Shown here: one piece after another, positions 1,401 to 60,038 of the stretch
How the letters are laid out: each line of letters starts with the position of its first letter
Numbering within the stretch: position 1 is the first letter of the stretch
Source: Mobula hypostoma
Taxonomy: Eukaryota
NCBI RefSeq assembly: GCF_963921235.1
Contig: NC_086097.1
Location: forward strand, 159,776,001 to 159,840,000
Direction of reading: 5' to 3'
Length of the DNA: 64,000 nt
Notes under the pieces: generated by a model
What the model was told of the DNA's origin: nothing
What the model saw: only the letters and a program-made list of their open reading frames with translations
Database searches by the model: none
Program-made: the position numbers and the translations under genes

Positions 1401-2119
1401 ATCATTGGCTTGCTCAATGTGGCAACACATTTGACCAGTGTCCAGAAACTGGACAGCAAACATATTTTTGGTGTGCGAAAACTACACTGAAGTTAGCATT
1501 AGTTCCTGATCAGAGGTCAGCAAAACAAAGGATGAGATTTGGATGCCCTTTCATGTGATTTGTAAACTTCTAAAGGTATTGAAATCAAAACTGCACATTT
1601 TGCTACTAGTCAGTTTCACAGTAGCATGGTTTTCACATACTGGCCCATGGATAAAGGATCCATTTCATTAAAGATGACTCTGATAGCATTCTGCCAAGTG
1701 GGGATGGGATATACAGGTAGAGAGAAGCGATGGAGAATGATGTGATGTGATTTAAGTATGGGCTAGACCCCCTAAACTAATAAAGAACTTGGAGCAAGTT
1801 CTGATTAATGGTGATTAAACTCTATCAGCCGGTTGTCATAACCCTACTCTGTGGTGCAGGTGGGAGAAATGCCTATTATTATGTTAAGTTTGCCCAGAAT
1901 TATGTTTTATATTATGCTGATGTTTTAAAAAATAGAACAAACAGACTTTCCCTCATCCATTTTCTGGGAACAGCTCTGTGAAGAATAAACAATTGCCGTG
2001 GTTGCATCCAAAAGATACAGATTTGCTAATGAGACTGACTTGAATGATGGTGAAGTAATGGTTCAGCAGCATAATAGTGGTGCTCATAGCAAAGAGGGGT
2101 CAGATGTTGGTGTAAGGAT

Positions 2120-2520
2120 AATTCCAGTCCTGAGCAACCGTCTTGGCCAAAAACGTCAAATGTTCATTCATTTCTATGGATGTTGCCTGACCTGAGAAGT
2201 TGCTCCAGCGTTTTGTGTTGCCTGTGGTAATTCCAGGCCCAGATTCATGCAAAATGCCAAGAAAATCATAACCTTAAACTAAAAGACAGAACGCTGGCAG
2301 AAGTCAGCAGGTCAAGCAGTATCTGAAGAGGCAAGAGTGGGTCAATGGTTCAGGGTGAGATGCTGTCGTAGAAGGTGGAAGAAGGAAGATTGCTAAAATA
2401 TAGCAGTCAGGAGGGTGGGATGGAGGATAGTAGATGATAGGTGGAATGAGAAGGGGAGGGTATGATGTATAGATGGAACATGTGATGGAAGTGATCAATT
2501 GAATGAAACACAAAAGACCC
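2120..2520. mobile_element. Two decayed Penelope-like 3' end pieces (+ at about 2120-2225, - at about 2280-2520)
   Basis: atggatgttgcctgacctgagaagttgctccagcgttttgtgt and the reverse-orientation acgctggcagaagtcagcaggtcaagcagtatctg match the PLE tail at 46490-46540. Confidence 0.65.
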
Positions 2521-3577: not shown

Positions 3578-3745
3578 AGAATTTCTCAGTAATGCCTTTG
3601 AACTATCTTAAGTTTGTTCTCTTTCTACTTTATCTTAATGACCATCTAAATTCATCTTATGTCATTGGTCCTAGCATAAACCCATCTAATTATTTTAGTA
3701 CATCATTCTGCATCCATATTAGGAAAAAGGTAAGGAATGTTTGTC

Positions 3746-4359
3746 GCAAACAAGAGAAAATCTGCAGATACTGGAAATTTGAGCAACACACACAGAATGC
3801 TGGAGGAACTTAGAGGACCAGCAGCATCAATGGAAAAAAGCACAGTAGTCATTTTGGGCCAAAACTCTTCGACAGGAATGGAGAAAAAAAATCTGAGGAG
3901 TAGAATTGAAACGTGGGGAGAGGGGAAAGAGAAACATCAGGTGATAGGTGAAACCTGGAGCGGAAGGGATGAAGCTCAGAGCTGGGAATTTGATTGGTGA
4001 AAGAGACAGAAGGCCATGGAAGAAAGAAGAGGGGCGGGGAGGAGCACCAGAAGGAAGTGATGGGCGGGCAAGGAGATAAGGTGAGAGAGGGACAAGGGGA
4101 TGGGAAATGGTGAATGGGGAGTGGGGGGCAAGCATTGCTGGAAGTTTGAGAAATTGATGTTCATATCATCAAGTTGGAGACCACCCAAGCAGAATATAAA
4201 GTTCTGTTCCTCCGAACTAAGTGTGGCCTTATCTCTGCAGTGGAGGAGGCCGTGGATGGACATATCAGAATGGGAATGGGAAGTGGAATTAAAATGACCA
4301 GCCACTGGGAGATCCTGCTTGTTCTGGCAGACGGAGCATAGGTGCTCGGCGAAGCAGTG
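3746..4359 (-). mobile_element. 5'-truncated Penelope-like element (GIY-YIG C-terminus plus 3' tail)
   Basis: ORF 3976-4374 reads FAEHLCSVCQNKQDLPVAGHFNSTSHSHSDMS; 13-bp TSD aggaatgtttgtc at 3733-3745 and 4360-4372. Confidence 0.9.
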
Positions 4360-10130: not shown

Positions 10131-10592
10131 AACACGCAGAATTCTGCAGAGGCTGGAAATCCAAGCAACACACATCAAAGTTGCTGGTGAACGCAGCAGG
10201 CCAGGCAGCATCTCTAGGAAGAGGTACAGTCGACGTTTCAGGCCGAGACCCTACGTCAGGACTAACTGAAGGAAGAGCTAGTAAGAGAATTGAAAGTGGT
10301 AGGGGGAGGGGGAGATCTAAAATGATAGGAGAAGACAGGAGGGGGAGGGATGGAGCCAAGAGCTGGACAGGTGATTGGCAAAAGGGATATGAGAGGATCA
10401 TGGGACAGGAGGCCCAGGGAGAAGGAACAGGGGGAGGGAAGGAAAAACCCAGAGGATGGGCAAGGGGTATAGTCAGAGGGACAGAGGGAGAAAAAGGAGA
10501 GAGAGAGAAAGAATGTGTGTATGAAAATAAATAACGGATGGGATACGAGGGGGAAGTGGGGCATTAGCGGAAGATAGAGAAGTCAATGTTCA
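10131..10592 (-). mobile_element. Young Penelope-like 3' region copy (last codons of the endonuclease plus tail)
   Basis: Reverse complement closely matches 36205-36620 and 46120-46540; its hammerhead motif at 10228-10263 has CTGACGT in place of CTGACGA. Confidence 0.95.
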
Positions 10593-12495: not shown

Positions 12496-12514
12496 GACAC
12501 AAGAGATTATAAAA

Positions 12515-12760
12515 CAACACGTACAAACAGCTGGAGGAACTCAGTAGGTCAGGCAGCAGCTATGGAAATGAATGAGTAGTCGGTGTTTCGCTCTGAGACC
12601 CTTCTTCAGGACTGGTAAGGAAGGGGGAAAATGCCATAGACAAAGTCAGGTTGGTGGGAAAGATAAAGGGCTGGAATGAAAGAATCTGATAGGAGAGAAG
12701 AGTGGATAGTGGAGAGTTATAGGAGAGATTATCACAAAAAATCTGAGAAGAAATTAGGTC
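12515..12760 (-). mobile_element. Penelope-like 3' tail fragment
   Basis: gctggaggaactcagtaggtcaggcagcagctatgg and ctgagacccttcttcaggactgg. Confidence 0.8.
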
Positions 12761-14670: not shown

Positions 14671-15796
14671 TGAGATTTTGACCTAAAGCATTCACTCGGT
14701 TTCTCTTTCCACAGGTTCTACCTGACTGCTAAGTGTGTCCCACAACTGCTATGCTTGTTTTACATTTCCAGCATCTATAATGAACAGCAGAAAATAGGAG
14801 CAGGAGTAGGCCAATCAGACTCTCAGACCTGCCCTGCTTTTCAATTGATCATGGCTAATTTATGCTGGCCTCAACTCCATTTCCGTAGCAGTTCTATCAA
14901 ATATTTATCCACCCTCACATTAAATACATCTAATGGTTTGGCCTCCACCACTGAAGTGGGAGAAGTGGATTTGGGTTTCAGAGTTTATTGCAAATTTAAG
15001 TCTGATGTTACATGACCTGCTAGTTTGAAAGCAGACCTTCCTCCTCATAAACACAAGATATTTGCCATTGCTGGAGACCTGGAGCAACACATACAAAATG
15101 CTAGAGGAATTCAGCTAGTCGGGCAGCATCAATGGAATTCAATAAACAGTCAACATTTTGGGCTGAGACCCTTCTTCAGGTTTGGAAAGGAAAGGGAAAG
15201 AAGCCAGAATAAAAAGGTGGGGGAAGGGGAAAGAGTTAATCAGTGAAGCTAGGTGGGTGGGAAAGGTAAAGAGCTGGCGAAGAAGTATCTGATAGGAGAG
15301 CAGAGTGGGCCATTGCAGAAAGAGAAGGAAGAGGGGGTCCAGCGGGATGTGATAGTCAGGTGAGGAGAAGAGGTAAGAGGCAAGAGTGTGGAATGGAAGA
15401 TGGGGATGCAGGGAATTATCAGAAGGAGAAATTGACGATCATGCCATCAGGATGGAGGCTAACTAGCTGGAATATGTGGTGTTGCTCCTGCAACCTGAGA
15501 GACGCATGATCTTGGCAAAAGAGGGGGCCGTGGACAAACATGTCGGAACAGGAATGGGGATAGGAATTAAAATGTCTTTGGCCACTGGGAAATTTTGGTT
15601 TTGGTCAATAGAGCAGAGGCAGTCGACAAAGTGGTGCCTAATTTACATCGGCTCTTACCAATGTAAAGGAGGCAGCATCAGGAGCACTGGATACAATAGA
15701 TAATCCCAACAGATTCGCATCTGAAGTGTTGCCTCACTTGGAAAGACTATTTGGGCTGCTGAATGGAGGTGAGGGAGGAGGTGAATGAGCAGGTGT

Positions 15797-17035
15797 TGTC
15801 ACAGTGGCGGGGCATTGGGAGCTAGGGTATGGACTCCGAGCCCGAGACTGGGCAAGGACCCAGTACCTGGGTCTTGCCTCGGGCTTCCAGTACCTGGGTC
15901 TTGCCTCGGGCTTGGACCCCAGAACCAGACATGGACATGACATGGGCTAGGGAGAGGAGGAACATGGAAAACAGAGCCTCGGTCTCGGGAGAGCAGGTAC
16001 ATGGAACCATGGACACATACACAGAACAGAGAGCTGGGACCGCTCCTTGGGTACAGGACATAGGGCCGGGACTCACACACAGAACAGAGAGCCGGGACTC
16101 CTCCTTGGGTACAGGACATAGGGCCGGGACTCATGACCCTCCGCGGGGCAACAGCAGGACGTCCTGACTTACCCCACGGAGGCAAGGACAAGACAAGACA
16201 TGACTCCCCACGGGGCAACGGCAAGGCGGCCTGACTTACCCCACGGAGGCGAGGACAGGACAAGACAAGACCAACACGAATGGACACCAGACAGTACCTC
16301 TCTAGCTCCGGTGATGGAACTAGACCGAAGTGCAGGCGGGGGCTGCAGACGAGGGCTAGAGGTGAGAGGGGCAGAGAAGGGATTCAGACAAAGGGGTAGG
16401 ACAGGAATCACAGACCGCCAGGGCCAGGACATGACTCAGAACTGGGAAGCCGCCAGGGCCAGGACATGACATGGTACTTGAACGCCGACAGGGACAGGAC
16501 TTGACATGGTACTTGAATGCTGCCGGAGCCAGGATGTGGACATGGTACTTGCATGCTGCCGGAGCCAGGACGTGGACGTGGTACTTGGATGCCGCCGGAG
16601 CCAGGACGTGGTGCTTGGGACCTCCGGGTAGTGCCGAGCTCTCGACTCGGCCCGGGAACAGTAGACAGCGGCTCTTGATTCTCTCTGGCGGGTTAACTGA
16701 TGGACCCATCTTGATGAGGAAACTTTGCAGGCTCGCTTTGGCGAGGTAACTGGACAGGGTTACTCCGGTGAGGAAAGGCGAATTACCGGCACTCGCTTCG
16801 GGTGGAGACAAGGCTTGCTCCGGCCAGATGACATTGGCACGCCGTGACCTTGCAGACTTTGCAGATGCTCCCGCACCAAACAGCTGAAAGCTGGAGACTA
16901 TAAACTATTGGTTCAGCTGAGAGTTAATTGCCTCTAATCACCAAAGTCGAGGGACACGGGAAAATAGGGAATCAACGATCCGGATCGTAACATAAACAAG
17001 CTAAATTTAAAGGGACCCCGATCCGGACCCTGACA
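15797..17035 (-). mobile_element. 1239-bp solo LTR (Gypsy-type) rich in internal tandem repeats
   Basis: Termini TGTCA...TGACA; 5-bp TSD ggtgt at 15792-15796 and 17036-17040; removing it restores the PLE sequence; orientation inferred from CCAAT and TATA-like motifs near 16899-16911. Confidence 0.8.
16460..16615. repeat. Tandem repeat, about 36-bp unit, 4 copies, inside the solo LTR
   Basis: Unit ggacgtggacatggtacttgcatgctgccggagcca; further duplications of 27 bp (15860-15915), about 60 bp (16013-16132) and about 68 bp (16133-16268). Confidence 0.9.
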
Positions 17036-17400
17036 GGTGTAGCACTTTGGCTGCTTGCAGGGATATGTGCCTGGTGGGAAATTAGTAGGGAGGGATGAAT
17101 AGACTGGAGGAATCATGGAGGGAGTGACACCTGCAAAAAGCAGGCGATGGGGGGGAAGGTAAAGATGTGTTTGTTAGTAGGTTCCCTTTGAAGCTGGCAG
17201 AAGTTACGGAGAGTGATGTGTTGAATGTAAAGGCTTATGGGGTGGTAGGTGTGGGCAAGAGAAAATCTAGCTCTTTTAAGGCAGTGGAAAAATTGAGTGT
17301 GTGCAAATGACCAGGAAATGGAAGAGATTCGGGTCAGGGCAGCATTAATGGTGGAGGAAGAGATACCCTGTTCTTTGAAGAAGGGGGACATCTCTGATGG

Positions 17401-17645
17401 AGCGAGATTTGCAATTTTCCAGTCCTCTGGCACCATGCCAGAATCTAATGATTTTTGAAGGTCTAATGCCTCCACAATCTCTACTGCTACATCTTTTAGA
17501 ACCCAGGGGTGCAGTTCATCTGGTGCAGGCGATTTATGCACCCTTAGGTCTTTCAGCTTTTTAAGCACCTTCTCTCTTGTAACTGCACCCACTTCTCTTC
17601 TCTGGCACACTGCTAGTATCTTCCACAGTGAAGACTGATGCACAG
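17401..17645 (-). mobile_element. Internal CR1 ORF2 fragment nested in the old PLE
   Basis: LKKLKDLRVHKSPAPDELHPWVLKDVAVEIVEAL...SLDSGMVPEDWKIAN. Confidence 0.85.
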
Positions 17646-18515
17646 TAAGAGGAAAGCTTTATCTTGGGAACAAATGCAGCAGAGACAAAGGAGCTGAGAA
17701 AAGGCATTCGTGTTTTTACAGGAAACTGGGAAAAGTTATAATCAAGATAGTCATGGGAACCAGTATATAAGATTTATAAAAGATGTTAGTAATCAGTTTG
17801 TTTCCAGACATAGAGACAGAGATTGTGAAAGGGAAGAGAGAAATGTCAGAAATAGACCAAGTGATCTTAAGGGCAGGGAATAAATTGGATGCAAAGTTGA
17901 TGAAATTGACAAGCTCAACAGGGATGCATGAAGTCATTAATGTAGCATAGGACGATTTGGGGAGCATTGCCAGGAAAGGCTTGGAACATGGACTGATCTA
18001 TATAGCCATCAAAAAGGCAGGCTTTGCTGGAGTTTATGAGGGTACCGATAGCTATCCCATGAGATTAGGGAAAGTAGGAGGAGCCAATTAAGAAATTGTT
18101 TAAGGTGAGGACAAGTTCGGCTAGATAGAGGAAAGTGGTGGTGGAGGGGAACTATTTGAGTCTTTTCTTAAAAAATAAGCGGAGAGCTTTAATGCCCTCT
18201 TGATGGGCGAAGAGATGCATATGGACTCGACATCCATGGTGAAAGTGAGGCAATCAGGGCCATGGAATTGAAAGTTGTTGAGGAGACCATGAGTGTCCCG
18301 AATTTAGGTGGTTAGGGACTGAACCAAGGGGGATAGAATGGAGCTAATCTATGTAGACACGAGTTCAACGGGGCAGGAGTAGGTAGAGACAATGGGCCTA
18401 TCTAGATAGTCAGGTTTGTGGATCTTGGGTAGGAGGTAGAAGTGAGCAATGAGCAATGGGAACTACAGTATGAGTTCCATGACAGTGGATGGGAGTTCTC
18501 TCACATTGATGTGTA

Positions 18516-19808: not shown

Positions 19809-19834
19809 CAAGACAAATAGAACCGACCGACTGG

Positions 19835-24704: not shown

Positions 24705-26945
24705 AAAACACGTGGAGAACAGAAGGATGACAAGAATGAAGGTGGGGCCACTAAAGGATAAAGAAGGCAACATGTTCTTGGAGGTGGAGGAGATTGGGGA
24801 GGTCCTAAATGAATACTTTGCTTCAGTATTCACAAGTGAAAAGGATCTTGATAGGGTGAGGCTGAAATAGAACAGACCTGTGTGTTGGACAATGTGGAGA
24901 TTAAGGAAGAAGAAGTGTTGGATCTTCTTAAAAACATCAAGATTGATAAGTCCCCAGGGCTGGATGTTATATACCCCAGGTTGCTGTGGGAAGTGAGAGA
25001 AGAGATTGCTGTAGCAGTAGCTATGATCTTTGAATTGTCTTTGGCTGTAGGGAAGGTGTCGGAAGTTCCCTTGTTTAAAAAAGGTAATAGGGAGAATCCT
25101 GGAAACTATAGACCAGTGAGTCTTATGTTGGTGGTCTACAAACTATTGGAATGGATTCTTAAGAGTAGGATCTACGAGCACTTGGAGAACTACAGTCTAC
25201 TCAAGGATAGTCAACATGGCTTTGTGAAGGGAAGGTCCAGCCTCACGAGCCTAATTGAGTTTTTTGAAGAGGTAACAACAGAAATTGATGAGGGTGGGGC
25301 GGTAGTTGTGGTCTACATGGATCTTAGCAAGGCACTTGACAAGGTCCCCCACAAGAGATTCATCCAGAAAGTCATGAGGAATGGGATCAGTGAAACCTTG
25401 GCTGTTTGGATAAAAAATTGGCCTACAGGAAGAAAGCAGAGAGTAGCAGTGGAAGGAAAGTATTCTGCCTGGAGGTTGGTGACTAGTGGAGTGCCGCAAG
25501 GATCTGTCTTGGGACCCCTGCTCTTTGTGATACAAAGATTGGAGGAGTTGTGGAAGGAGCTGTAGGTTGTCAAAGTTTACAAGAGGATATCGACAGGATG
25601 CAGAGTTGGGCAGAAAAGTGGCAGATGGAGTTCAATCCGGATAAGTGTGAGGTGATGCATTTTGGAAGAACAAACCAGAAGGCTGAGTGCAGGATTAATG
25701 GTCGGTTACTTAAGAGTGTGGATGAACGGAGGGACCTTGTGGTTCAAATCCATACATCCCCCAAGGTCGCTGCACAGGTTGATAGGATAGTTAACTGCGT
25801 AAATAAACTCCATACCTCTACATAAATGAAAAGAAACTTGCAATGCAGGGAATACTCAGGTCTGGAATTTATCATCAACAATCTTACAGTGGAGACCACA
25901 AGTTATTGATGGTTATCACAAAAAGTAAAACTAGAAAGTATTTAAAGTCTGATTCTGTCACTTTCTTGTTGAGTTTGTTTGGGAGTGAAAACATCCTGAT
26001 GAAGTGCCTGATCTGTAATTGGCTTTCATTAGATAAGATTAGGAACTGACGTTGCTTGAACAACACTAGTTGATTTTGTATCTCTGCTATTTCACACGTT
26101 AAGAGGCATTCAGAACACATAAAGCTATGGGTAGAAATAACAGTTAACAGCTGAAAAAATGGATTTGACAGACAAACACACACAAAATGCTGGAGGAACT
26201 CAGCAGTCCAAGCAGCATCTCTGGAAAAGAGAACGGTCGACATTTCAGGCCGAAACTTTTCAGCAGGACTCTTTCCATAGATGCTGCCTGGCCTGAATAG
26301 TTAAGAAGGCCTGTAAGATGCTAAGCTTTATTAATAGGGGGATTGAGTTCAAGAGTAGAGAGGTCATGTTGCAACTCTACAAATCTCTGGTGAGACCACA
26401 CTTAGAGTATTGTGTTCAGTTCTGGTCACCTCATTATAGGTAGGATGTGGAAGCTATGGAGAGTGGGCAGAGGAGATTTACCAGGACGTTGCCTGGATTG
26501 GAAAACAAGTCTTATGAAGCAAGGTTAGCAGAGCTGAGGTTTTTCTCTTTGGAGCATAGAAGGATGAGAGGGGACTTAATAGAGGTCTACAAGATTATGA
26601 GAGGCATAGATAGGGTGGATAGCCACTGTTTCCCAGGGCACGAATAGCAAACACCAGAGGGCATATGTACAAAGATAAGAGAGGGAAGTTTAGGGGAAAC
26701 ATCAGGGGTAAGTTTTTTACACAGAGAGTTGTGGGTGTCTGGAATGATTTGCCAGGGATGGTGGTGGAGGCTAAATCATTAGGAGTATTTAAGAGTCTCT
26801 TGGACAGGCACATGGATGAAAGAAAAATAGAGGGTTACGGGGTAGTGTGGGTTCAGTACGTCTTTTATAAGGAATATATGGGCCAGCACAACATTGAGGG
26901 CCGAAGGGTCTGTACTGTGCTGTAGTATTCTAGTGTCTAGTGTCT
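24705..26945 (+). mobile_element. 5'-truncated CR1 (ORF2 RT to 3' tail), interrupted at 25795-26296
   Basis: [41 protein letters not shown]; a deletion near 25528 removes the FADD motif; tail (tctagtg)n. Confidence 0.95.
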
Positions 26946-34900: not shown

Positions 34901-35359
34901 GTCAGTAGGCTTATAGTAGACATCAGTGGATAAGCTGTCTCCAGAGACAGAGACAGAAAGATCTAGAAAGGGGAGGGAGGTGTCGGAAATGGACCAGGTA
35001 AACTTGAGGGCAGGGTGAAAGTTGGAGGCAAAGTTAATAAAGTCAACGAGTTCTGCACGCGTGCAGGAAGCAGCGCCAACACAGTCGTCGATGTAGCGAA
35101 GGAAAAGTGGGGGACAGATACCAGAATAGGCACGGAACATAGATTGTTCCAGAAACCCAACAAAAAGGCAGGTATAGCTAGGACCCATACGGGTGCCCAT
35201 AGCTACACCTTTAGTTTGGAGGAAGTGGGAGGAGCCAAAGGAGAAATTATTAAGAGTAAGGACTAATTTCGCTAGACAGAGCAGAGTGGTGGTAGAGGGG
35301 AACTGATTAGGTCTGGAATCCAAAAAGAAGCGTAGAGCTTTGAGACCTTCCTGATGGGG
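34901..35359 (-). pseudogene. PLE reverse transcriptase core (inverted segment, no stop codons)
   Basis: PHQEGLKALRFFLDSRPNQ...RYIDDCVG...DVYYKPTD. Confidence 0.95.
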
Positions 35360-35364
35360 GACCT

Positions 35365-36231
35365 TCTCACAGCTATCTGGACTATTCCTCTTCTCGCCCT
35401 GTCTCTTGCAAAAACGCCATCCCCTTCTCGCAATTCCTCCGTCTCCGCCGCATCTGCTCTCAGGATGAGGCTTTTCATTCTAGGACAAGGGAGATGTCTT
35501 CCGTTTTTAAAGAAAGGGGCTTCCCTTCCTCCCCTATCAACTCTGATCTTAAATGCATCTCCCCCATTTCACATACATCTGCTCTCACTCCATCCTCCCG
35601 CCACCCCACTAGGAATAGGGTTCTCCTGGTCCTCACCTACCACCCCACCAGCCTCCGGGTCCAACATATTATTCTCCGTAACTTCCACCTCCTCCAACGG
35701 GATCCCACCACTAAGCACATCTTTCCCCCCCCCCCTGCATTCCGCAGGGATCGCTCCCTACACAACTCCCTTGTCCATTCGTCCCCCCCATCCCTCCCCA
35801 CTGATCTCCCTCCTGGCACTTATCCGTGTAAGCGGAACAAGTGCTACACATGCCCTTACACTTCCTCCCTTACCACCATTCAGGGCCCCAAACAGTCCTT
35901 CCAGGTGAGGCAACACTTCACCTGTGAGTTGACTAGGGTGATATACTGCGTCCGGTGCTCCCGATGTGGCCTTTTATATATTGGCGAGACCCGACGCAGA
36001 CTGGGAGACCGCTTTGCTGAACATCTACGCTCTGTCCGCCAGAGAAAGCAGGATCTCCCAGTGGCCACACATTTTAATTCCACATCCCATTCCCATTCTG
36101 ACATGTCTATCCACGGCCTCCTCTACTGTAAAGATGAAGCCACACTCAGGTTGGAGGAACAACACCTTATATTCCGTCTGGGTAGCCTCCAACCTGATGG
36201 CATGAACATTGACTTCTCTAACTTTCGCTAG
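35365..36231 (+). pseudogene. PLE RT thumb, Cys linker and GIY-YIG endonuclease (no stop codons)
   Basis: The frame is open from SHSYLDYSSS at 35365 into the listed 245-aa ORF, ending QPDGMNIDFSNFR. Confidence 0.95.
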
Positions 36232-36524
36232 GCCCCACCTCCCCCTCGTACCCCATCTGTTACTTATTTTTATGCACACATTCTTTCTCTCACTCTCCTT
36301 TTTCTCCCTCTGTCCCTCTGAATATACCTCTTGCCCATCCTCTGGGTTCCCCCCTCCTTGTCTTTCTTCCCGGACCTCCTGTCCCATGATCCTCTCGTAT
36401 CCCCTTTTGCCTATCACCTGTCCAGCTCTTGGCTCTATCCCTCCCCCTCCTGTCTTCTCCTATCATTTTGGATCTTCCTCCCCCCCTCCAACTTTCAAAT
36501 CCCTTACTCACTCTTCCTTCAGTT

Positions 36525-36560
36525 AGTCCTGACGAAAGGTCTCGGCCTGAAACGTCGACT
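36525..36560 (+). ncRNA. Minimal type I hammerhead ribozyme motif in the PLE 3' region
   Basis: AGTC-CTGACGA-A-AGG-tctcgg-CCT-GAAAC-GTC-GACT: helix I AGTC/GACT, core CUGANGA and GAAA, helix II AGG/CCT, palindromic ACGT helix III, GUC cleavage triplet. Confidence 0.8.
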
Positions 36561-36629
36561 GTACCTCTTCCTAGAGATGCTGCTTGGCCTGCTGCGTTCA
36601 CCAGCAACTTTGATGTGTGCTGCTAGTTA

Positions 36630-39600
36630 AATATTGGGTGCCAAAAGCTGAGTATTTGAAGAGCATGTGAATAGAACCTGTGTGTTCAACCAGAGATATC
36701 ATCTGGTGTTTTGCTTTGTGGTCTGATCTTGATCCAGTTTCATTCCATATCTTGATCCAAGACTCGGACACTCCAGTACTTGGGTCCAAAGCATCCTCGT
36801 TAAGGACTCTAGTCACAGTATGATTGAACAAGTATGAACCCAGTGGGATATCAGAGTCTTTCATCTGCTGTGACCAGCCACAGCAAGAAGATTTCTAGAC
36901 ACAGCCTGAATATTTTATGACCTCCAAGTAGCTGTTTGCCAAGTTTTGCAAGGAGGAAGTCAGAGTCGTTTGGGAGAGCCAGTCAGTCACTGTGCGGAAC
37001 CAGTACATCTTTCAATCCTGATGAGATCTGATGGTGACCAGGCTCTTGCTGCAGCTTTCTCAATCAATGCTCATTAGAGTTCAAACTCCACCATCCCAGT
37101 TCCCTTTGGAGTGTGGAAAGGTGGCCTTCATTATCTCTCTTCTGACTGGGAGAGCCCTGGCATGAGCCAATGCGCTTTGGGAAAGAAGGTTGGAGGCTTG
37201 TTTGGATTCAGAGGATTTCATGGCTGCCATGAGGAAGGTGTTCCACCACCCTGCCAGAGCCATCTGAGCTTCAGACCGTCTGATGAAGTTTCAATAGGGC
37301 AGACGGTCAGCGGTCAACTATGCCATCGAGTTTCAGACATTGGCCCAAGAGAGTGGCAGGAACAGGAAGGCCTTGGCCACTGTATACCGCCATGGACTCC
37401 TAGATGAACTGAAGGTTGCTCTCGGCTGGGAGAGCCAGCAGAGGAGTTAGAGGTTCTGATTGACCAATCCATTCGTCTCCATAATCATCAGGCAGAGCGT
37501 AAGTGGGACTACATCAAGAGGTCAAAGAGGGTTAGCCCGAGCCTGGCCTTAATACATTGTAGTTCCACTCCCTGATCTCAGATGACGACCAACCAGTTTC
37601 CTGCTCAGAATCCTGTCGAGACCATGCAAATTGGCCACATAAGAATCTCTGCCAATGAGAGGTTCCAGCGTTGGAGTCAATGTTGCTTCTCTTGCTGTGG
37701 GGAAGCAGGTCACCAGCAGGCTGATGTCCTGAAGCTGCAGCCATCAGGGGAACTGTTAAGACCATCCAGTTTTGAGAGGACTGTGATGGTAGCAGTGACT
37801 ATTCCCAACCTCATGGATTTTGATATGAAGCTTAGAGCAGACATCTCCTGGGGTTTGAACCAACGAGAGGTGAATGCCTTTTTGGGCTCTGAGGCAGCTG
37901 AAAATTTCCTGGACATGGGAACTGCCCATCAGCTCAACGTGGGATGCAGGAGCTGAGCCAGCCCATGCCCGCAATTGTCTTGGATGGCCGTCCACTTGGT
38001 TCCAGACAGATCTAGCAACAGACGTTGGTCTTGTGGATGAGGATAATACAAAGGACATTAGTTTCTATACCATTCAATCTCCTCAGAGACCCCTGGTCCT
38101 CGGGCACCTTTGACAGTCCCAACATAACCCTTCTATGAACTGGATCATTGCATGGTCCCGTCACTGCAAGAATGTATGTTTTCGGCTTGGTGTTCCAACA
38201 CCCAGACTCTCCTAAGTCCAGCAGCTGATGAGGGGCAGTCTTCAGTTCGGGGTAACCTGGAGTCTTTAGGAAACCCAGATCTGCCTTCAAGGGCACACAA
38301 GCTGGCACCAGCCAACAGACCCGCGTGATTTCCAACCCTGTTCTGTCAGGGGTGCACTGGAACTAGTTCTCCAGTTCAGGAGCATAACAGGGAGGTGCCC
38401 AGGCAGTCAGGAACTCTAGCAGCTAAGCCATAGGGCTCCAGTTGCCAGGGGAAGGCTCCAAAACAGAGAACCTTGGATCCTAGTCCCAGGAGCAGAAGGA
38501 CAATTTGTTGTGCTGCACGACCGATGTTTGAGAATATGGATGAGTGTTTGGACTGTGATTTGACCTTTATTTTCACTAAAGACTCTTGAGAACCTATGGA
38601 GGAGACTCTGGGGTCTGCCAAATCATCACCTCAACCTAAGGAGCCTCAGGAGTCATCCTTGGAGGAAGATTTGGGGGTAATTGCAGCAACCAAGCCAGTA
38701 GAAAACCATTCTATCTATAAGGATCTACAAGGATTTGGAAGAAGTCTTCAGCAAGGGAAAGTCCTTGACTCTTCCACTGCACTGACCCTACAACTGTGCT
38801 ATATATCTACTGCCTGATAATTGTCTTCCACGGGGTCAAATATATACACTCTCAGGCCCAAAGAGAAGCACAATGGAGGAGTATATAAAGGAGGCTCTTG
38901 TCCTGGGGTTCATTTGGCCCTCCACCTCGCTAGTCAGTGCTGGCTTCTTCTTCGTACAGAAAAAGGATGGGAGCCTGCGGCCATGCAATGATTATAGAGC
39001 ACTGAATTGCACAATGATCAAGAATTGTTACTCTCTTCAACTCCTGAATACTGTCTTTGAGATTTTCCAAGGAGCAAGAGTATTCTCAAAGCTAGACTTG
39101 CGGAGTGCATACAGTATGGTTCGCATAAAGGAGGGTGATGAGTGGAAGATGGCATTCAACACACCAACAAGACACTATGAGTACCTGGTCATGCACTTCA
39201 GCCTTGTGAATGTGCCAGCACTTTTCCAGACCTTTTAAATGACGTGCTCCAGGATGCTCTCTATAAGTATGCCTTCGTGCAACATCCTAATTTTCTTGAA
39301 GTCCATGGAGGAACATGTCACTTACATCAGAGATATCCTAAAGAGGCTTCTTGATCATGGACTTTACATCAAGCTGGAGAAGTCCATATTTCAGGATAGG
39401 CCTCTCCAGAGTTGAGGAAATTAGCATACAAATTCATTGGACCCTCAATACTCTCAGGAAAGTAAACCTGGTAGCTCTCATTTTGCAGCTCCCTAATACC
39501 CTCAAGATCAACCCCACTTTCCACGTTTCCAAATTAAAACCTGTGAACACCAGCCCTTTAGCCCCACCACCATCAGTTCCGTGACCACCCAGCTTGTCGA

Positions 39601-39780
39601 TGGGGAGCAAGTCTCCACCAAGAGAAGAATTTTGGATTCATGAACTATTAGGGATGTTCGGCAGTTCCTCGTGGACTGGAAAGGATTTGGACCCAAGGAA
39701 TGGTGTTAGGTTCCTGCAAGACACGTCTTGGATCCAGCCCTCATCTACAACTACCATCACCATCTCTCCAAGCAGCCTCA
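36630..39780 (+). mobile_element. Decayed Sushi-like chromoviral Gypsy element (gag, protease, RT, integrase C-terminus, chromodomain)
   Basis: Gag SFLNQCSLEF..KVAFIISLLTGRALA, knuckle CGEAGH, protease [65 protein letters not shown], chromodomain QFLVDWKGFGP; putative LTR end at about 36817 and ATG at 36834. Confidence 0.9.
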
Positions 39781-39782
39781 TG

Positions 39783-40300
39783 AGCTCATTGAAACTTATC
39801 GAATGGTGAAAGGCCTTGATAGGGCTTGTTGGCAGAGGATATAGCCTCAGGATAAAGGAGCATCCTTTTAGAACAGAGATGAAGAGGAATTTCTTTAGCC
39901 GGAGAGTTCTGAATCTATGGAATTCATTGCCACAGGTAGCTGTGAAGGCCAAGTCTGCATGCATATTTAAAGCAGAGATTAATAGATTAATAGATTGGTC
40001 AGGGTATGAAGGGATACAGGGAAAAGGTAGGAGAGAAAAACTGGATTAGCCATGATTTAATGGTGGAGCAGACTCAACGGGATAAATGGCCTAATTCTGC
40101 TGCTATATTTATTGTCTTACATCATTATGATGCATGGTATAGATAGAGTAAACAAATAGTATCTTTTTCCCTGGGTTGAAATGTGTAATACCAGAAAGCA
40201 TGCACTTAAGGTAAGAGGAAATTGTTTCGAAGGCCATGTGAGGGGTAGGTTTTTACACGCAGAGTGGTAGGTAACTGGGATGTTGGTAGAGGAAGAGATG
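39783..40300 (+). mobile_element. Two adjacent CR1 3' end fragments
   Basis: RGYSLRIKEHPFRTEMKRNFFSRRVLNLWNSLPQ; a second piece starts at about 40125. Confidence 0.85.
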
Positions 40301-40619
40301 ATGCTTCATAATTCTAACATTTTGTGGTTTTGTTCTTTTGTTTCCTCTGACTGGGCTGTCCAGAGCCTTAAAATTAAACACATGATGAGAAGAAAATTTC
40401 TAAACCTACAGGATAGTGCACCTAAGGAGTCCTCAACACAAGAGGACAATGTATATTGTGTATATTCAAAAGAGGGGTCAAGTTTTTGGATCAAAAGGGA
40501 TTCAATGAGTATAGGGTCAGGAAACGAATGTGGTGTTTGGCTGGAAGATTAGGTACTTCTGAAATCTCAGAGCAGTCATGAGTGGCCAAATTACCCTCTC
40601 CTGCTTTTATTTATGTTCT

Positions 40620-40870
40620 TCAGCTTTAATGTGGGAGACCACACAGCCAATGTCTGTAAAACTATCTACTGCAAACAACAATTTGGTAATAATCAGATAA
40701 GTTGTTTTGTGATTTGGTTGCAGGTCAAGTATTGTCCAGAAAACTGGGGAAATATCCCGGCTGTTTCTTGCAACAGCGTTAGGAATCACAGAAAGGGATC
40801 ATCTGAAGCCTTGGTTATATTTTTCATCGTGAAAAATGATAGCTCCAACCAAGTCCTTCCAGTGCATTTT
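40620..40870 (-). mobile_element. Deu-domain SINE remnant (AmnSINE1/SacSINE1-like)
   Basis: cagccaat...aaacaacaatttggtaataatcagataagttgttttgtgatttggttg...tattgtccagaaaactggggaaata resembles the Deu domain as I recall it. Confidence 0.65.
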
Positions 40871-41789
40871 TCCAAATAAGTAGATTTTGAAAATATAATT
40901 AATTGGTATACCTTCAAAAAAGGAAACAAAGTGATTAAAAGAAGAAAGAAAACTATTGGCAACACAGTTCATTTCATCTGTTACCATTTTCATAGGATCA
41001 GCTGCATTGTTTCACATTGGAGGCCTCAATAATGCAACAGAACTTTGATAACAAGCTACTAATTAGGATTTATTTTTCAGACCGGCACAAGGAAAAACTC
41101 CAGGTGTAAGTCATTCAGAATAGCAGGAAGCCAAAATATAAGCAAGAAAAAGACTATAAGACCTTCCAACGCTCGATTAGACACTGCAGCAATCATCAAT
41201 AACACAGAGAGGGAAATGTTCGATGTTAAGGAGAAATCTGAAATGCCTATCTTCGTTTTGGCAGTTAAACTATTACTGGAAAACTATGACCACCAACAAT
41301 TTGAAGGAAAATGAAAAATAGAATGATTTGGGGTTTCATTAAATAATAAAAGCAATGCTTCGTAAATAAAGTCTAACTGAATGATCGGTTTTGTTGCAAG
41401 GATAGAATTTAATTGGCAAGATATAATGCTAAATCTATATAAAACCTTCATAAATCCATTGCTGAAGTACTGTGAGCAGAGCTGACCTCCCTGCAATAAG
41501 AAGGATGTTAAGAACAAATGGAAATATAGAGCAGATTTACCTGGATCTGGTGCACTACATGATATGTAAGTAAAAAAGCTCTTGAACAGAAGAGATATAG
41601 AACCAGTTATGTTTCAACCTTCGATTGCTGTGAAAATTCTTTTGCAAAGTAATGATCTTACTGTTGGCCATAACCAGACCCTAGAATTTTCTCAAGGGCT
41701 TCAGTGGAAGATTGGCAAAAAACTGCTTTATGCATTAATCATGATTTTCACCAGTTGTAACTGTGGCAGATAAAGCAACTTAAAATGCA

Positions 41790-43430
41790 AGTTCCCTGCC
41801 CCGACTGTTTCCTTTTCACTATGGATGTCCAGTCCCTGTACCCTTCTACCCTCCATCATGAAGTCTTTAAATTTCTTCAAAAGATCCAACCAGATCTCCT
41901 ACACCACTACCCTCCTCCATCCGGAAGAACCGATCCTCACCCTCAACAATTTTTCCTTCAGCTCCTCCCACTTACTCCAAATTCAAAAGGTAGCCATGGC
42001 CATCCACTTGTGCCCTAGCATGCCTGCATTTTCATTGGCTATGTAGAACAGTCCATGTTCCAAGCCTTCCCCAGGAATGCTCTGCAACTCTTTGCCTCCA
42101 ACTTCCATCCTGTCCTTAAATTCACTTGACCCATTTCTGACACCTCTCTCCCCTTCCTCAGTTTCTCTGTTTCCATCTCTGGAGACAAACTGTCTACTGA
42201 TATATTTTAGAAACCTACTGATTCCCACAGCTATCTTGACCATACTTCTCCCTGCCCTGTCTCCTGTAAAAAGGCTATTCTCTTTTCTCAGTTCCTTCAT
42301 CTTTGCTGCATCTATTCCCAGAATGAGCCTTTCATTTCCAGGACATCAAATATGTCCTCCTTCTTTAAAGAATGGGGATTTCCTTTTTCCACAACTAATA
42401 CTGTTCTTATCCTCATCTCTTCCATTTCCCAGGCATCTATGCTTCCCATCGCCTTAACAAGGACAGAGTTCCTCTTGTCTTTCCCTAGCACTTCATGAGC
42501 CCCAGATCCAACACATCATTCTCCTCATCTTCTGCCATCTTCAACAGGATCCTACCACCAAACCCAGCTTTATCTCCCCACACTCTCTGCTTTCTGCAAG
42601 CGTCACTCCTTCCGTGATTCACTTGTCCATTTGATCCCCACCACTCTAATTTCCCACCTGTCACATACTCCTGCATGCAACAGAAATGCTACACCTGCCC
42701 ATTCACCTCCTCTGTTGCCTCCATTCAGGGCCCCAAATAGCCCTTCCAGGTGAAACAACATTTCACTTGTGAGTCTGTGTGCCATATCTGGCACTCCTGA
42801 TATGGCCTCTTCTATGTTGGTGATCGCTGATATAAATTGGGGGACTGCTTTGTTGAGAACCTCCACTCCATGTGTCAAAATTGGAATTTCCCAGTAGCCA
42901 ACCATTTTAATTCCTGTACCGATATGTTGGTCAATGGCGTTCTCTTCTGCCTTGATGAGGCCACTTTCAGAGTGGATGTGCAACACCTCATATTCTGTGT
43001 AGGTAGCCTCCAACCTCATGACATGAACATCAATTTCTCCCTCCAGAAATAGTTCTCCCTTCCCTCTTCCCTCTTCTTTTATTTCCTATTCTGGCCTCAT
43101 TACTCTTCTCCTCATCTGCCTATCACCTCTCTCAGTGCCCCACCTTCTTCCCTTTCTTCCATAGTTCACTCTCCTCTCCTATTAGATTCCTTCTTCTCTA
43201 GCCCTTTACCTTTAACACCTACCTATCATCTTCCAGCTATTCCTACTTCCCCCCGCCCACTTTTTTATTCTGGCATCTTCCCCTGCCTATCCAATCCTGA
43301 AGAAGCGTCTCAGTCCAAAATGTTGCCTGTTTATTCATTTCCATAGATGCTGCTGGATCTTCCGAGTTCCTCCAATGTTCTGTGTGTATTTCTCTGGATT
43401 TCCAGCACGCGCAGAATCTGTTGTGTTTAT
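41790..43430 (+). mobile_element. Older Penelope-like element (RT, GIY-YIG, tail), frameshifted
   Basis: FTMDVQSLY, ILTLNNFSFSSSHLLQ, GDCFVENLHS..PVANHFNS; degenerate hammerhead at about 43293-43330. Confidence 0.9.
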
Positions 43431-44099
43431 GAGAAAACAAGTTGGAAAATTGTGTAATTACATTTGTGTGAACGTCTGAATCAGACGAAAAGGACAAAAT
43501 AAATCACTATATGTTTTGGAGCTTATGCCCACTCAAAGTCAATTCTTGTGGCTTGTCTCTCCTGTAGTAGGTTGTTAGCTGTAAAACTTTCCTTTTGGAA
43601 GACTGAAATATGCCCACTGCCATATTTTCTGTCTGCACATGGATCCCTGTACTCATATTGAAACATGGTTGATTTTTTTTCTTGGAGAGGGCAGAACTAT
43701 GATGACACACAACAGCGACTCCTTCGAGCTCATCTGCGGAAATAGCATAATTTCTACCTTTGATGTCTGTTTCTTTCGTTATCAGTGTGTGTGCGGTTCT
43801 GTCGATGACCTTGACCTGGAGTTACACTCAGACTTCAATTCTTTTTTCTGGTGGGACACGCTCCTGGGGGCTCACGTCCAGCCACTTTTCTAAATCCCAG
43901 GGATGCAGCCGAGAAGACGAGTGCATCTTTGGGGTTCCAAGGCTTCACGGCCCTGGGGATGAGCTGTCTCTAAGCTGGTGCTGCTGAATGAAGTGTCATG
44001 GGAGAAAATGGAACATCAAGAACAATGGATCGGTTGTGGGGGAGGGGCTCTGTACTGGCTGAATCGTGTGCTTGCTCTTTCTCATTGGTGGGGGAGAGT

Positions 44100-44585
44100 T
44101 TGTTCCCAATTCTTGAGTTGGAGAACACATAAAAAAGTGATGCGACAGACTTTCTTATCACAATATCAGCGAGTTGTTTTTTTTATCTCTCCCCTCTCGT
44201 GAAAGGGGATACCTCTTTGTCCCTTTATTGGGGAGAGAGAGAAAGAGCCAGTGGTATGTTAAATTGTTAACTGAATGATTAGTTGTTGTTGCAATGCAGA
44301 TCATGGCCCCTCTTGGGGAGCTTTGCTCTTGCTTGCTTGGTGGTGGAAGATGCTGATGCCTTTTTGTTGAAGTAAGCAGGGAACGGGGAGGCTTGATACT
44401 TTACTGCTGTTTGTGCATGGGAGGGGGGAGTAGGGGGAGCTTTCGGGTTCTAATATTTTTACTGTCACTTACCCTTTGGTGCACTCCTCTGTTTTCATGG
44501 ACGTCTGCAAAGAACAAGAATTTCAGGATGTATATTGTATATATTTCTCTGCTATTAAGTGCAACTATTGAACTATCGAACGATA
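44100..44585 (+). mobile_element. Non-autonomous retroposon 3' part (same family as 22455-22610)
   Basis: ctctgttttcatggacgtctgcaaagaacaagaatttcaggatgtatattgtatatatttctctg is shared with 22520-22590; 5' boundary uncertain. Confidence 0.6.
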
Positions 44586-44634
44586 CTTGGTCAGTTTATA
44601 GATGGATGTTTCTTGTGAAGTTTCTTGCACAGAT

Positions 44635-44848
44635 TGATGCACTGTCAATTACTCCAAAAGACTGGAAGTAGAGTAAATACTGAAAGGCCTTTATTAACAG
44701 TAAAAGGACCAACGTCCATGCTGAGTATCTGTCCTGGACTGAGGGAGGAGCAGTGACACAATTGCCTTTATTCAGGGATCTGTGGGAGGAGCCACAGGAG
44801 CAGTCAGCAGAGGGGCATGTGCAGACAGGTAACCCAGCTACAACATAC

Positions 44849-44904
<56 letters not shown>

Positions 44905-44927
44905 ATATACATATATGGTTTACCACA
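44635..44927 (-). mobile_element. 293-bp solo LTR containing a microsatellite
   Basis: TG...CA termini (tgatgcac...ttaccaca); 5-bp TSD cagat at 44630-44634 and 44928-44932; AATAAA on the - strand. Confidence 0.85.
44845..44916. repeat. Compound (AT)n(GT)n microsatellite
   Basis: Directly visible. Confidence 0.95.
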
Positions 44928-45361
44928 CAGATTACCTTTCTTATGAACTTCCAAAGTTTATTTTGCAGTTATATTTCCTATTGGTACATGCTAGATATCA
45001 CTATCAGCAAACTGAAAGCAAGAAGAATTTTTTTTTATTTTCCATAGTTTTTGTCTTCTCTCTTTTCCAGCTAGTTTATTACACATGTAATCATTAGACT
45101 GAGCGAGGGTAAAATAATACATCATGGCACAATTATTTTAAATAGGTTGAACAGATGAATGTCAAAAATCTAGATATTACATTGCAGTCCGGATATAAAT
45201 CCACTTGATTGATAAGCCCACCCACCACCCGAAACATTCATTTTGATGCTGTCTATGTCATGATTTATGCTATCATGTTTAATGAGATGAGAACTAGAGG
45301 ACACAGCCTCAAGATTCAAGATTTGGGATGAAGATGAGGAGAAACTGCTTTTTTCCAGACA

Positions 45362-46542
45362 TCTGCTCTCAGGATGAGGCTTTTCATTCTAGGACGAGGT
45401 AGTTGTCTTCATTTTTTAAAGAAAGGGGCTTCCCTTCCTCCACTATCAACTCTGCTCTTAAACGCATCTCCCCCATTTCACGTACATCTGCTCTCACTCC
45501 ATCCTCCCACCACCCCACTAGGAATAGGGTTCCCCTGGTCCTCACCTACCACCCCACCAGCCTCCGGGTCCAACATATTATTCTCCGTAACTTCCGCCAC
45601 CTCCAACGGGATCCCACCACTAAGCACATCTTTCCCTCCCCCCCCCTCTCTGCATTCCGCAGGGATCGCTCCCTACACAACTCCCTTGTCCATTCGTCCC
45701 CCCCATCCCTCCCCACTGATCTCCCTCCTGGCACTTATCCGTGTAAGCGGAACAAGTGCTACACATGCCCTTACACTTCCTCCCTTACCACCATTCAGGG
45801 CCCCAAACAGTCCTTCCAGGTGAGGCATCACTTCACCTGTGAGTCGACTGGGGTGATATACTGCGTCCGGTGCTCCCGATGTGGCCTTTTATATATTGGT
45901 GAGACCCGACGCAGACTGGGAGACCGCTTTGCTGAACATCTACGCTCTGTCCGCCAGAGAAAGCAGGATCTCCCAGTGGCCACACATTTTAATTCCACAT
46001 CCCATTCCCATTCTGACATGTCTATCCACGGCCTCCTCTACTGTAAAGATGAAGCCACACTCAGGTTGGAGGAACAACACCTTATATTCCGTCTGGGTAG
46101 CCTCCAACCTGATGGCATGAACGTTGACTTCTCTAACTTCCGCTAGGCCCCACCTCCCCCTCATACCCCAGCTGTTACTCATTTTTATGCACACATTCTT
46201 TCTCTCACTCTCCTTTTTCTCCCTCTGTCCCTCTGAATATACCTCTTGCCCATCCTCTGGGTCACCCCCCCCTCCGTCTTTCTTCCCGGACCTCCTGTCC
46301 CATGATCCTCTCGTATCTCCTTTTGCCTATCACCTGTCCAGCTCTCGGCTCTATCCCTCCCCCTCCTGTCTTCTCCTATCATTTTGCATCTCCCCCTCCC
46401 TCTCCAGCTTTCAAATCCCTTACTCACTCTTCCTTCAGTTAGTCCTGACGAAGGGTCTCGGCCTGAAACGTCGACTGCGCCTCTTCCTATAGATGCTGCT
46501 TGGCCTGCTGCGTTCACCAGCAACTTTGATGTATGTTGCTTG
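45362..46542 (+). mobile_element. Young 5'-truncated Neptune-type Penelope-like element
   Basis: Stop-free ORF 45403-46146 (GIY-YIG), nearly identical to 35494-36231; 12-bp TSD tttttccagaca at 45350-45361 and 46543-46554. Confidence 0.95.
46441..46476 (+). ncRNA. Minimal type I hammerhead ribozyme motif in the PLE 3' region
   Basis: AGTC-CTGACGA-A-GGG-tctcgg-CCT-GAAAC-GTC-GACT with all core positions intact. Confidence 0.8.
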
Positions 46543-47319
46543 TTTTTCCAGACAGTAGTGAATTTATGAAATTCTCTGATCAGGAAAGCAATGGAGGTTA
46601 CCTTTACATATTTAAGACACAGTTAGAATTTTGCATAGCAGGGTAATTAAGGGTTATGGTAAGAAGGCATGCAGATGGAACTGAGTTCATAGCCAGATCA
46701 GCAATGATTATGAATGGCAGATCAAGTTTGATGGGCCAGATGGCCGACATCTTCTCCTCATTCTTATGTTCTTATGACCAAAACCCACTGCCGTTACTTA
46801 CCAAGACTACTCTGACAAAATCTACCTCTAAGTGTAAGCATTAGCATGTCACTTTCAAGTCACACACAGTTTTGCTGTGGAAACACTTTGTTAATCAAAC
46901 CCTGGAACCTACACTATATGTACAATAAGTTAACCATCATTGGCAAACAAAGATGATCTTCCCATTATCAATGCCAATAAATGTTGACTTCTTAGTAAAT
47001 TAATTTAAAGAAGTTCAGGGTTTGCCATTGGAGGCCTTTATTGTTGACATATCTTAATGCAATTCTCTTCAAGCCATACAGGGTTGCAACAGAAATTTGC
47101 ATTTCTCTTACATGCCTTCTATCTATCTATCTGTTTGCTTAACCATCTGTCTAAGCATTTGTCTATTTATCTGTCTTTCTGTTTCTGTTTGTTTTCCTGT
47201 TAGACAGTCAGAAGCAAAGATTACAACCAGAAGAACCTAACCATATAACGTTTATGAATTGAAGAGGATGTGTGATAACATTGTTTTTTGCTCTTTCTTA
47301 TTTATGATGCTCTTTATAG

Positions 47320-52065: not shown

Positions 52066-52109
52066 TGTTGAATAAAATTTTTCAAATATCTTTGGCTATC
52101 ATCAGGGGC

Positions 52110-58870: not shown

Positions 58871-59597
58871 AGGAATAAAAAGCACATTGCTGGAGGAGCT
58901 CAGTTAGTCAGGCAGCATCCAAGGGTTGAAAGGAATTGTTGAAGTTTTAGGTCAAGACCATGCATCTGGACATAGTTGGAGTCTAATCGTGTCTCTTGTG
59001 TGTTCTTCATGAAGTTTATTTTTTCTTAGTTGAAGGAGTATTAGGAAAGAAGAAAGAGGGAATGGGACAAGTGGAACTGCTCTCCTGGGATCCTGCACGG
59101 CCCAAATAATGTCCTTCCGCACCACTTATAAAGAATGTGATAGTTCAATGACACTGATTTCTAATCAAATAAGAATTAAGAGCAAGGCGAGGCCATGAGA
59201 TCACGACTGACCTGACTGTAACCTTTTAACTAGCAGTATGTTTCCCCCTGCACTAGAAGCTTATTTTATACAATAACTTTTGATGCATCACCTAATGAAG
59301 TGCTTTTTGGAAACCCAAGTGCATCCAGCTGTTCCTCTTTATCCACAGCACATGTTACTTTGTCAAAGAGCTCCAATAAATTGGTTGACATAGTTTAATC
59401 AGGCTGACTGTACCTGATTACTTTGAAATTTACTATGCATCTGGTATAAGGATTTTAATAACAGTTTCTAACATTTTCCTTTGCTGATGTTAAGCCACTT
59501 TTCCTCCTTTTTATGAATAAATGTGTTATATTTACTTGCTTTAATTTTTATGTCATTTTCCATGAATATAAAAATTTTTAGCAATTAAAACCATTGC

Positions 59598-60038
59598 AAC
59601 ACACACAAATTTCTGGGGAAACTCAGCAAGTCAGGCAGCATCTGTGGAAATGAATGAACAGTCGATACTTCAGTCTGAGACCCCTCTTCAGGACTGGAAT
59701 TGACAGGGGAAGACGCCAGAATAAAATAGTGGAGAGAGGGAAAGGAGGATAGCTAGAAGGTGATAGGTGAAGCCAGGTGGGTAGGAAAGAGACCCTACCT
59801 AGAGGGGAAGGAATCTGAAAGAGAGTGGACCCCAGGAGAAAAAGAAGGAGGAGCAGACCCAGGAGGAGATGATAGGCAGGTGAGAAGAGGAATGTGGCCA
59901 GAGTGGAGAATACAAGAAGAGGGGCGGGGGAGAGAACATTTTTAACCGGATGGAGAAATTGATAGTCATGCCATCAGGTTGGAGACTCTCCAAAAAGAAT
60001 ACAAGGTGGTTCTGTCCACCCTGAGGGTGGCCTCATCC
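59598..60038 (-). mobile_element. Penelope-like 3' region nested in an old - strand CR1 fragment (about 59280-60400)
   Basis: ESLQPDGMTINFS; ggaaactcagcaagtcaggcagcatctgtgg; flanks encode the CR1 motif NKEKANELSRHLASIFTV. Confidence 0.85.

Follow-up and report, generated by a model that had tools for sequence, protein, structure and literature searches.

Cervera and De la Pena (2014, PMC4209133) have reported minimal hammerhead ribozymes (min-HHRs) in the pseudo long terminal repeats (pseudo-LTRs) of metazoan Penelope-like elements (PLEs), including Xena, Poseidon and Neptune from fishes. A base lying between positions 9 and 10.1 and a palindromic 15.2-16.2 segment are described there as consistent traits of these motifs, whose monomers do not cut and whose dimers cut weakly in vitro. 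In PAc, the Poseidon element of Anolis carolinensis, two reverse transcriptase (RT) start sites, both 3' to the hammerhead, bound an optional tail, cleavage requires protein, hammerhead mutants insert normally in vitro, and RNA-seq ends at the cut are reported as not found (Frangieh et al. 2024, PMC11167929). A CX2-5CxxC linker defines the Neptune and Nematis elements, and an optional tail of 30-40 bp is known in PLEs (Craig et al. 2021, PMC8557442); Neptune and Poseidon are vertebrate PLE clades (Li et al. 2026, bioRxiv 10.64898/2026.07.22.740005). In this work we have analysed a window of 64,000 nt of Mobula hypostoma NC_086097.1, to which all motif counts given below are confined, and in which the original prediction had placed two intact dimer-type hammerheads of a PLE family, acting as a pair whose cleavage would define the ends of the inserted RNA. 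Our results show that the two motifs are carried by independent 5'-truncated insertions, and suggest that they were passively copied by an RT that read through the uncut ribozyme.

The full descriptor (core, helix II of at least 3 bp and helix I of at least 4 bp), a search that had been proposed together with the original prediction, returned exactly the two sites predicted, which are 36-mers on the plus strand that differ at a single base (Table 1). Shuffled sequence gave a mean of 0.007 matches, and none of 300 dinucleotide shuffles of the window, which may fall slightly short of its full length, contained two. The core-only pattern gave three matches against 0.60 expected, the third of which (52076-52105) fails the helix test. 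Both motifs have the complete catalytic set (C3-U4-G5-A6-N7-G8-A9, G12-A13-A14, A15.1, U16.1 and H17) and type I topology, with a helix I of 4-5 bp, a helix II of 4 bp and pairing probabilities of 0.94-0.97. Helix II had been drawn as 3 bp with a 6-nt loop, and is better described as 4 bp, including a U-G pair, with a 4-nt loop. Helix III has no loop and consists of the palindrome A-C-G-U at 15.2-16.2 (36552-36555 and 46468-46471), so that, judging by the sequence, it cannot form within a single copy, in agreement with the original prediction. Two features of a Rfam scan and of a consensus fold could be taken as signs of a chance resemblance: the scan gave six matches at E<=5 in the window, none of them a hammerhead, and RNAalifold missed the fold when given the mostly dead copies of the family. 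Chance is nevertheless refuted by the shuffles and by the context of the motifs, whose position and details fit the published PLE min-HHRs, and we leave it practically no weight. As far as sequence can tell, these are real minimal, dimer-type hammerheads of a PLE.

The copy set comprised 11 loci with no more than 11 mismatches to the motif, two intact and nine decayed. The extra A between positions 9 and 10.1 is present in nine of them; it had been read as a family-wide variant, and is not a new one: the extra base and the loop-less helix III are already listed among the min-HHR traits (PMC4209133). The first helix II pair (10.1-11.1) is G-C in four copies, G-U in three, A-U in two and unpaired in two. 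Contigs from 4 out of 24 sequencing runs, in which joints and majority letters and not RNA ends were read, bear on the A-U pair of copy 1: at position 36537 G is the majority letter in all four runs (depth-weighted 99%, 99.6%, 92% and 96%), and since G dominates, copy 1 owes its A-U pair to a private G>A substitution.

Both motifs lie on the sense strand, about 293 nt 3' of the stop codon of an open reading frame (ORF) that ends in a GIY-YIG endonuclease. The two elements that carry them, element 1 (34901-36624) and element 2 (45362-46542), are 96% identical over 1185 bp (93% by tblastn). The Pfam match to GIY-YIG has E=2.8e-4 in element 1 (21.6 bits, just below the 22.6 cut-off) and E=1.3e-4 in element 2, and the nuclease, read by eye, has a CxxC between GIY and YIG plus two later His residues (CCHH-type). 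The ORF has 46 longer protein relatives, all at E<=1e-10 and many with RT, the best being a zebra-shark protein with 61% identity; relatives hold both RT and GIY-YIG. These relatives make a cartilaginous fish the likely host. Residues 502-519 of this annotated protein form a C-terminus read through from the untranslated region (UTR) that resembles a translated hammerhead (10/18 residues, E=0.24), which is only a hint that the shark element has the same motif. The element is probably Neptune-type, as inferred from its Cys linker and from Neptune and Poseidon being the vertebrate clades and not from an RT tree, with Nematis as the alternative. In element 1 the RT core lies inverted ahead of the rest of the ORF. 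The opposite-strand joint 34901>35365 was present in contigs of three of the four runs, the contigs also connect the RT motifs of the inverted part with the thumb, and in the older copy at 41798-43433 the sequence runs on collinearly through the junction. The break at 34901-35365 looks like a clean 5' inversion between RT and thumb, without sequence loss, of a twin-priming-like kind.

The idea that the two motifs form the repeat pair of one element did not hold. A distance of 9,916 nt separates them, in which an RT fragment, an older copy and a microsatellite are found, and element 2 has its own 12-bp target site duplication (TSD); for these reasons they belong to separate insertions. No ORF flanked by two pseudo-LTRs was found in the window, the motifs standing in separate truncated inserts; this speaks against an intact element and not against membership of the family. 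Lacking the 5' part of the ORF and a nearby partner, the two elements are most likely inert debris.

Where the insertions end is more informative about the way they were made. All 11 copies run beyond the predicted cut into a common tail. Their 3' ends were taken from TSDs, local alignment having overrun into AT-rich flanks, and TSDs were usable in 4 of the 11 copies: they place the end 70 nt beyond the cut in the 46441 copy (TSD match 12/12) and in the 2126 copy (11/12), 69 nt beyond it in the 12613 copy (10/11) and 102 nt beyond it in the 3879 copy (15/16). For two further copies (26270 and 58972) the TSD is doubtful. Homology of element 1 with copy 10263 stops at 36624 (+68), and a longer tail extension is found in four copies and also as loose ends behind 36619/36624 in the contigs, so that there are two end points, +69/70 and +102, about 32 nt apart. 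At the other end, none of the 11 motif-bearing copies begins at the cut, and in four fainter remnants the 5' edge is hard to place. Because the TSDs place the ends 69-70 or 102 nt beyond it, the cut is not the 3' end of the inserts: cleavage does not set this end, and the template was there uncut or re-ligated. This contradicts, for the 3' end, the claim that cleavage after GUC defines the retrotransposed RNA. That claim, with the two motifs as a working pair, could draw on their both being intact, on the same strand and with a self-complementary ACGU, but the passage of every copy through the cut, the TSD ends, the origin of the motifs in distinct insertions, between which other repeats lie, and the lack of any motif-bearing copy starting at the cut make it very improbable. 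The TSDs at 46543-46554 and 2119-2130 both contain TTCCAG, a sequence that the element itself has immediately past the short 3' end and again immediately ahead of helix I; in these two cases there may be microhomology between target and template.

We propose that the hammerheads belong to the 3' pseudo-LTR of a Neptune-type retrotransposon and were passively copied in two independent truncated inserts, a reading that we consider probable. RT would start about 70 or 102 nt 3' of the predicted cut and read through the uncut ribozyme, as suggested by the match of the TSD ends to the optional PLE tail and to the two RT start sites of PAc, and every dead insert would inherit the motif in this way. 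Selection would act on full-length tandem masters, in which, by extension from published PLE work, the two ribozymes of one transcript could pair through ACGU/ACGU and cut weakly after GUC, probably aided by protein, releasing a unit-length RNA starting with GACUG. The same genomic anatomy would be produced if a tandem master were cut twice and the unit RNA circularised, RT then crossing the junction from 70 or 102 nt past it and rebuilding the hammerhead. Such a circular template was proposed by Cervera and De la Pena (2014, PMC4209133), and the related retrozymes form circles (bioRxiv 10.64898/2026.07.22.740005). In PAc, however, the substrate is predominantly linear RNA left uncut, and the hammerhead is dispensable for insertion (PMC11167929); we regard a circular intermediate as unlikely.

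Several observations weigh against passive copying from catalytically active masters. There is no full-length tandem master in the 64-kb window, a clear TSD was not found for 5 of the 11 copies, element 1 included, and the PAc mechanism is extrapolated here from a Poseidon element whose ORF starts inside the hammerhead to a family that is probably Neptune-type. At 10.1-11.1 the intact motifs have A-U (copy 1) and G-U (copy 2), where the usual conserved pair is G-C. On the 11 mostly dead copies RNAalifold gave neither a hammerhead fold nor a compensatory pair, and changes on both sides of a pair did not exceed shuffles in this same set (6 cells against 3.9 shuffled; 72/500 and 178/500). The per cent paired and the covariation score were borderline (7/500 and 15/500) and are inflated by relatedness. 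The original prediction was right that the first helix II pair occurs as A-U, G-U and G-C; that these changes are compensatory is not shown, both-side changes remaining within shuffles.

Conservation was compared between copy 36525 and the four of the eight older copies that keep the ORF end. Identity is 67-72% in the ORF end and 53-56% in the UTR (shuffled, 50-53%); the motif reaches 69-78%, and the tail 58-72% (shuffled, 43-47%). Motif and tail were kept across subfamilies while the UTR drifted to background. Among non-CpG cells, 7/72 changed in the core, 12/56 in helix II and 72/399 in the tail. The core is not significantly better conserved than the tail, the best Fisher p being 0.09 for the non-CpG cells (p=0.54 for all core cells, 13/88; p=0.67 with helices, 42/216; cells are not independent events), which also counts against the proposal. 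A significant excess of conservation of core and helices over the neighbouring tail, the test named with the original prediction, was accordingly not seen, while motif and tail both exceed the upstream UTR. Decay in the eight older copies affects 38/80 cells in CpG columns and 31/208 elsewhere, and the ACGU palindrome is altered in 8/16 of their cells. Two ideas on the tail itself were tried and rejected: a conserved tail fold (three of five copies were no more stable than their shuffles, with z of 0.0, 0.4 and -0.2; -1.9 and -2.4 in the others) and a tail hairpin, paired in only 45% of cells.

In another reading the motif cuts rarely, if at all, in this family, and is retained either because the tail signal needs it for structure or protein binding, or simply as a passenger. 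The even conservation of core and tail, the weakening of the first helix II pair to G-U or A-U and the sequestering of the core in the predicted monomer fold (see below) go in this direction, as do the failure of 8 out of 9 Xenopus retrozyme dimers to cleave (bioRxiv 10.64898/2026.07.22.740005) and the suggestion that hammerheads may simply parasitise PLEs (Craig et al., PMC8557442). Against it, the young subfamily retains every catalytic position, the non-CpG cells of the core are the least changed, and the PAc min-HHR does cleave with protein, with rescue by C3/G8 (PMC11167929). We consider a non-cutting motif improbable.

Folding was modelled with nearest-neighbour energies, which leave out Mg2+-dependent core and tertiary contacts, a further limit on the proposal. 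In a single young motif helices I and II are predicted to form, and G5-A6-C7-G8 of the core to pair with C15.2-G-U-C17 with a probability of 0.99; the resulting rod, which would be inactive, lies 4 kcal/mol below the open form. For the double-hammerhead layout the energy is -9.5 to -10.7 kcal/mol; two rods come to -20, and an extended duplex to -28.3. These predicted energies agree with the published inactivity of min-HHR monomers and the weak cutting of their dimers (PMC4209133). A switched ribozyme may be imagined, in which C7 locks the young monomer in the inactive rod until the element's protein or a partner RNA opens it, and splicing at an acceptor next to helix I would remodel this helix, as described for Drosophila Penelope; the ~100-nt stubs of hammerhead and tail described below could then come from splicing of a pseudo-LTR intron. 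A pyrimidine tract plus CAG, resembling a splice acceptor, runs up to the 5' strand of helix I (36510-36528 and 46426-46444, with equivalents in older copies), and in the D. virilis Penelope an intron ends at this same place (PMC4209133). Among the 15 contig joints examined, of 1,106, there was no GT..AG joint ending at helix I; the joint 36218>36525 is TA..TT with filler of uncertain origin, and the GT at the ORF stop is missing in the three young copies. The splicing hypothesis is unsupported, and the switched ribozyme as a whole is doubtful.

Table 1. Features of the hammerhead-bearing family in the window (positions in the 64,000-nt stretch)
Feature	Position	Strand	Remarks
Element 1, inverted 5' segment	34901..35364	-	RT core (QTKGVAMG, YIDD) by translation; weak Pfam RVT_1 match, E=0.038
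Element 1, ORF end	35365..36231	+	RT thumb, C-x4-C-x2-C linker, GIY-YIG endonuclease, stop codon; by translation
Element 1, 3' UTR/pseudo-LTR spacer	36232..36524	+	Pyrimidine-rich, ~293 nt
Hammerhead copy 1	36525..36560	+	Minimal type I; by sequence and descriptor
Copy 1, helix I	36525-28/36557-60	+	Extendable to 5 bp
Copy 1, core	36529-35	+	Followed by extra A at 36536
Copy 1, helix II	36537-48	+	4 bp including U-G pair, 4-nt loop
Copy 1, GAA	36549-51	+	Palindrome ACGU at 36552-55
Copy 1, predicted cut	36556/36557	+	After GUC
Element 1, conserved tail	36561..36624	+	End 68 nt beyond predicted cut, by homology
Element 2, left TSD	45350..45361	+	12 bp
Element 2, ORF end	45362..46146	+	5'-truncated; thumb, Cys linker, GIY-YIG
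Hammerhead copy 2	46441..46476	+	Minimal type I; first helix II pair G-U; predicted cut 46472/46473
Element 2, tail	46477..46542	+	End 70 nt beyond predicted cut
Element 2, right TSD	46543..46554	+	12 bp
Stub of ~100 nt, TSD-flanked	2119..2227	+	Decayed hammerhead (2126-2161) and tail only; 3' end 70 nt beyond cut
Older copy	3745..4358	-	Dead hammerhead 3879-3844; TSD puts 3' end 102 nt beyond cut
Third young-subfamily copy	10131..10592	-	Hammerhead 10263-10228, core A9>T; long tail
Older short copy	12514..12735	-	Dead hammerhead 12613-12578; probable TSD of 11 bp with 1 mismatch, 69 nt beyond cut
Older long copy	15044..18260	-	Interrupted ~15800 to 17030; dead hammerhead 15183-15148, with G12>A despite its G-C pair
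Hairpin stub	26174..26295	-	Decayed hammerhead and tail 26270-26174; adjoins inverted 25-nt tail piece 26271-26295 (+)
Older copy between the intact motifs	41798..43433	+	Dead hammerhead 43293-43328; long tail
Stub	58876..58972	-	Decayed hammerhead (58972-58937) and tail, without upstream UTR
Older copy	59596..60037	-	Dead hammerhead 59695-59660

All the decayed copies listed in the original prediction, five of them and the one near 15150-15180, are present, and three more were found at 2126-2161(+), 3879-3844(-) and 58972-58937(-). Weaker similarity (E<=0.004) marks four fainter remnants, at 2363-2283(-), 9195-9128(-), 14676-14760(+) and 52624-52690(+); the first is a degenerate, inverted tail copy that follows the 2126 stub after about 60 nt. 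The 11 motifs are all scattered singly, and tandem non-coding hammerhead units, as in the non-LTR retrozymes, were not found in the window. Three of the 11 copies, the stubs at 2119-2227(+), 26270-26174(-) and 58972-58876(-), start within a few bases of the 5' edge of the motif; the pyrimidine fraction upstream of the stubs is 0.37-0.50, against 0.77-0.87, the pyrimidine-rich UTR being missing. This common start could be a preferred truncation site or a detection bias.

The window holds other repeats. Aspartyl-protease and RT fragments in two frames at 18510-20623(+) probably derive from an LTR retrotransposon that has decayed. Other retroelements have left RT fragments at 24855-25565, 29097-29955, 38786-39238 and 55321-55890, and the segment 29059-30398 is repeated at 50642-51955 with 74% identity. 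A (CA)/(TA)/(TG) microsatellite at 44809-45001 gives spurious Rfam miRNA and snoRNA matches below the gathering scores. A pattern scan of metagenomes yielded 119 loci, none similar to the Mobula family by blastn or tblastn, and was not used as evidence. Among the top 40 of these loci, six carry one unrelated hammerhead-like repeat, the rest being treated as chance; in five contigs (L010, L033, L049, L055 and L056) this repeat has a complete minimal hammerhead with 4-bp helices, ACGU and the extra A, and it is likely to be the PLE of another animal.

How does the Mobula family compare with the systems described so far? We found no paper on PLE hammerheads of cartilaginous fish, and no such example in the available text of PMC4209133 or by a term search of its supplement; the preprint that samples one chondrichthyan (bioRxiv 10.64898/2026.07.22.740005) may list the family in its supplements. 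With the min-HHRs as published, the Mobula motifs share the type I topology, intact core, loop-less palindromic helix III, extra base and helix I of 4-5 bp, and also their mostly single, dispersed occurrence in truncated copies. They differ in helix II, which has 4 bp here and 7-8 bp in the Schistosoma families described, and in the first pair of that helix, G-U or A-U in the young subfamily in place of the conserved, typical but not obligatory G10.1-C11.1. As in PAc, the hammerhead lies upstream of two 3' end points and the inserts hold an uncut ribozyme. In PAc, however, the ORF starts inside the hammerhead and RT starts in an AC-rich stem-loop, whereas the end of the Mobula tail is UG-rich and the motif has no ATG; downstream of the motif, a 1-nt indel puts the first ATG in different frames in the subfamilies. 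The non-LTR retrozymes (Li et al. 2026, bioRxiv 10.64898/2026.07.22.740005) likewise have a type I hammerhead derived from a PLE pseudo-LTR, and their solo monomers resemble the ~100-nt stubs, but they consist of tandem hammerhead units, while the intact Mobula motifs sit in ORF-bearing fragments, with no array in the window. With the endonuclease-bearing (EN+) Neptune PLEs (PMC8557442) the family shares RT, CX2-5CxxC linker, C-terminal GIY-YIG, 5' truncation and inversion, optional tail of 30-40 bp and 3' hammerhead, the difference being that the window holds truncated copies only. The feature is an ordinary one for PLEs, in an arrangement known in fishes since 2014, from which the Mobula family differs in detail only. 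Young and abundant, this family offers a handy natural test set for what PLE hammerheads do, and, to judge by its +70 and +102 ends, the rule of internal initiation and optional tail established for the Anolis Poseidon would extend to a Neptune-type family.

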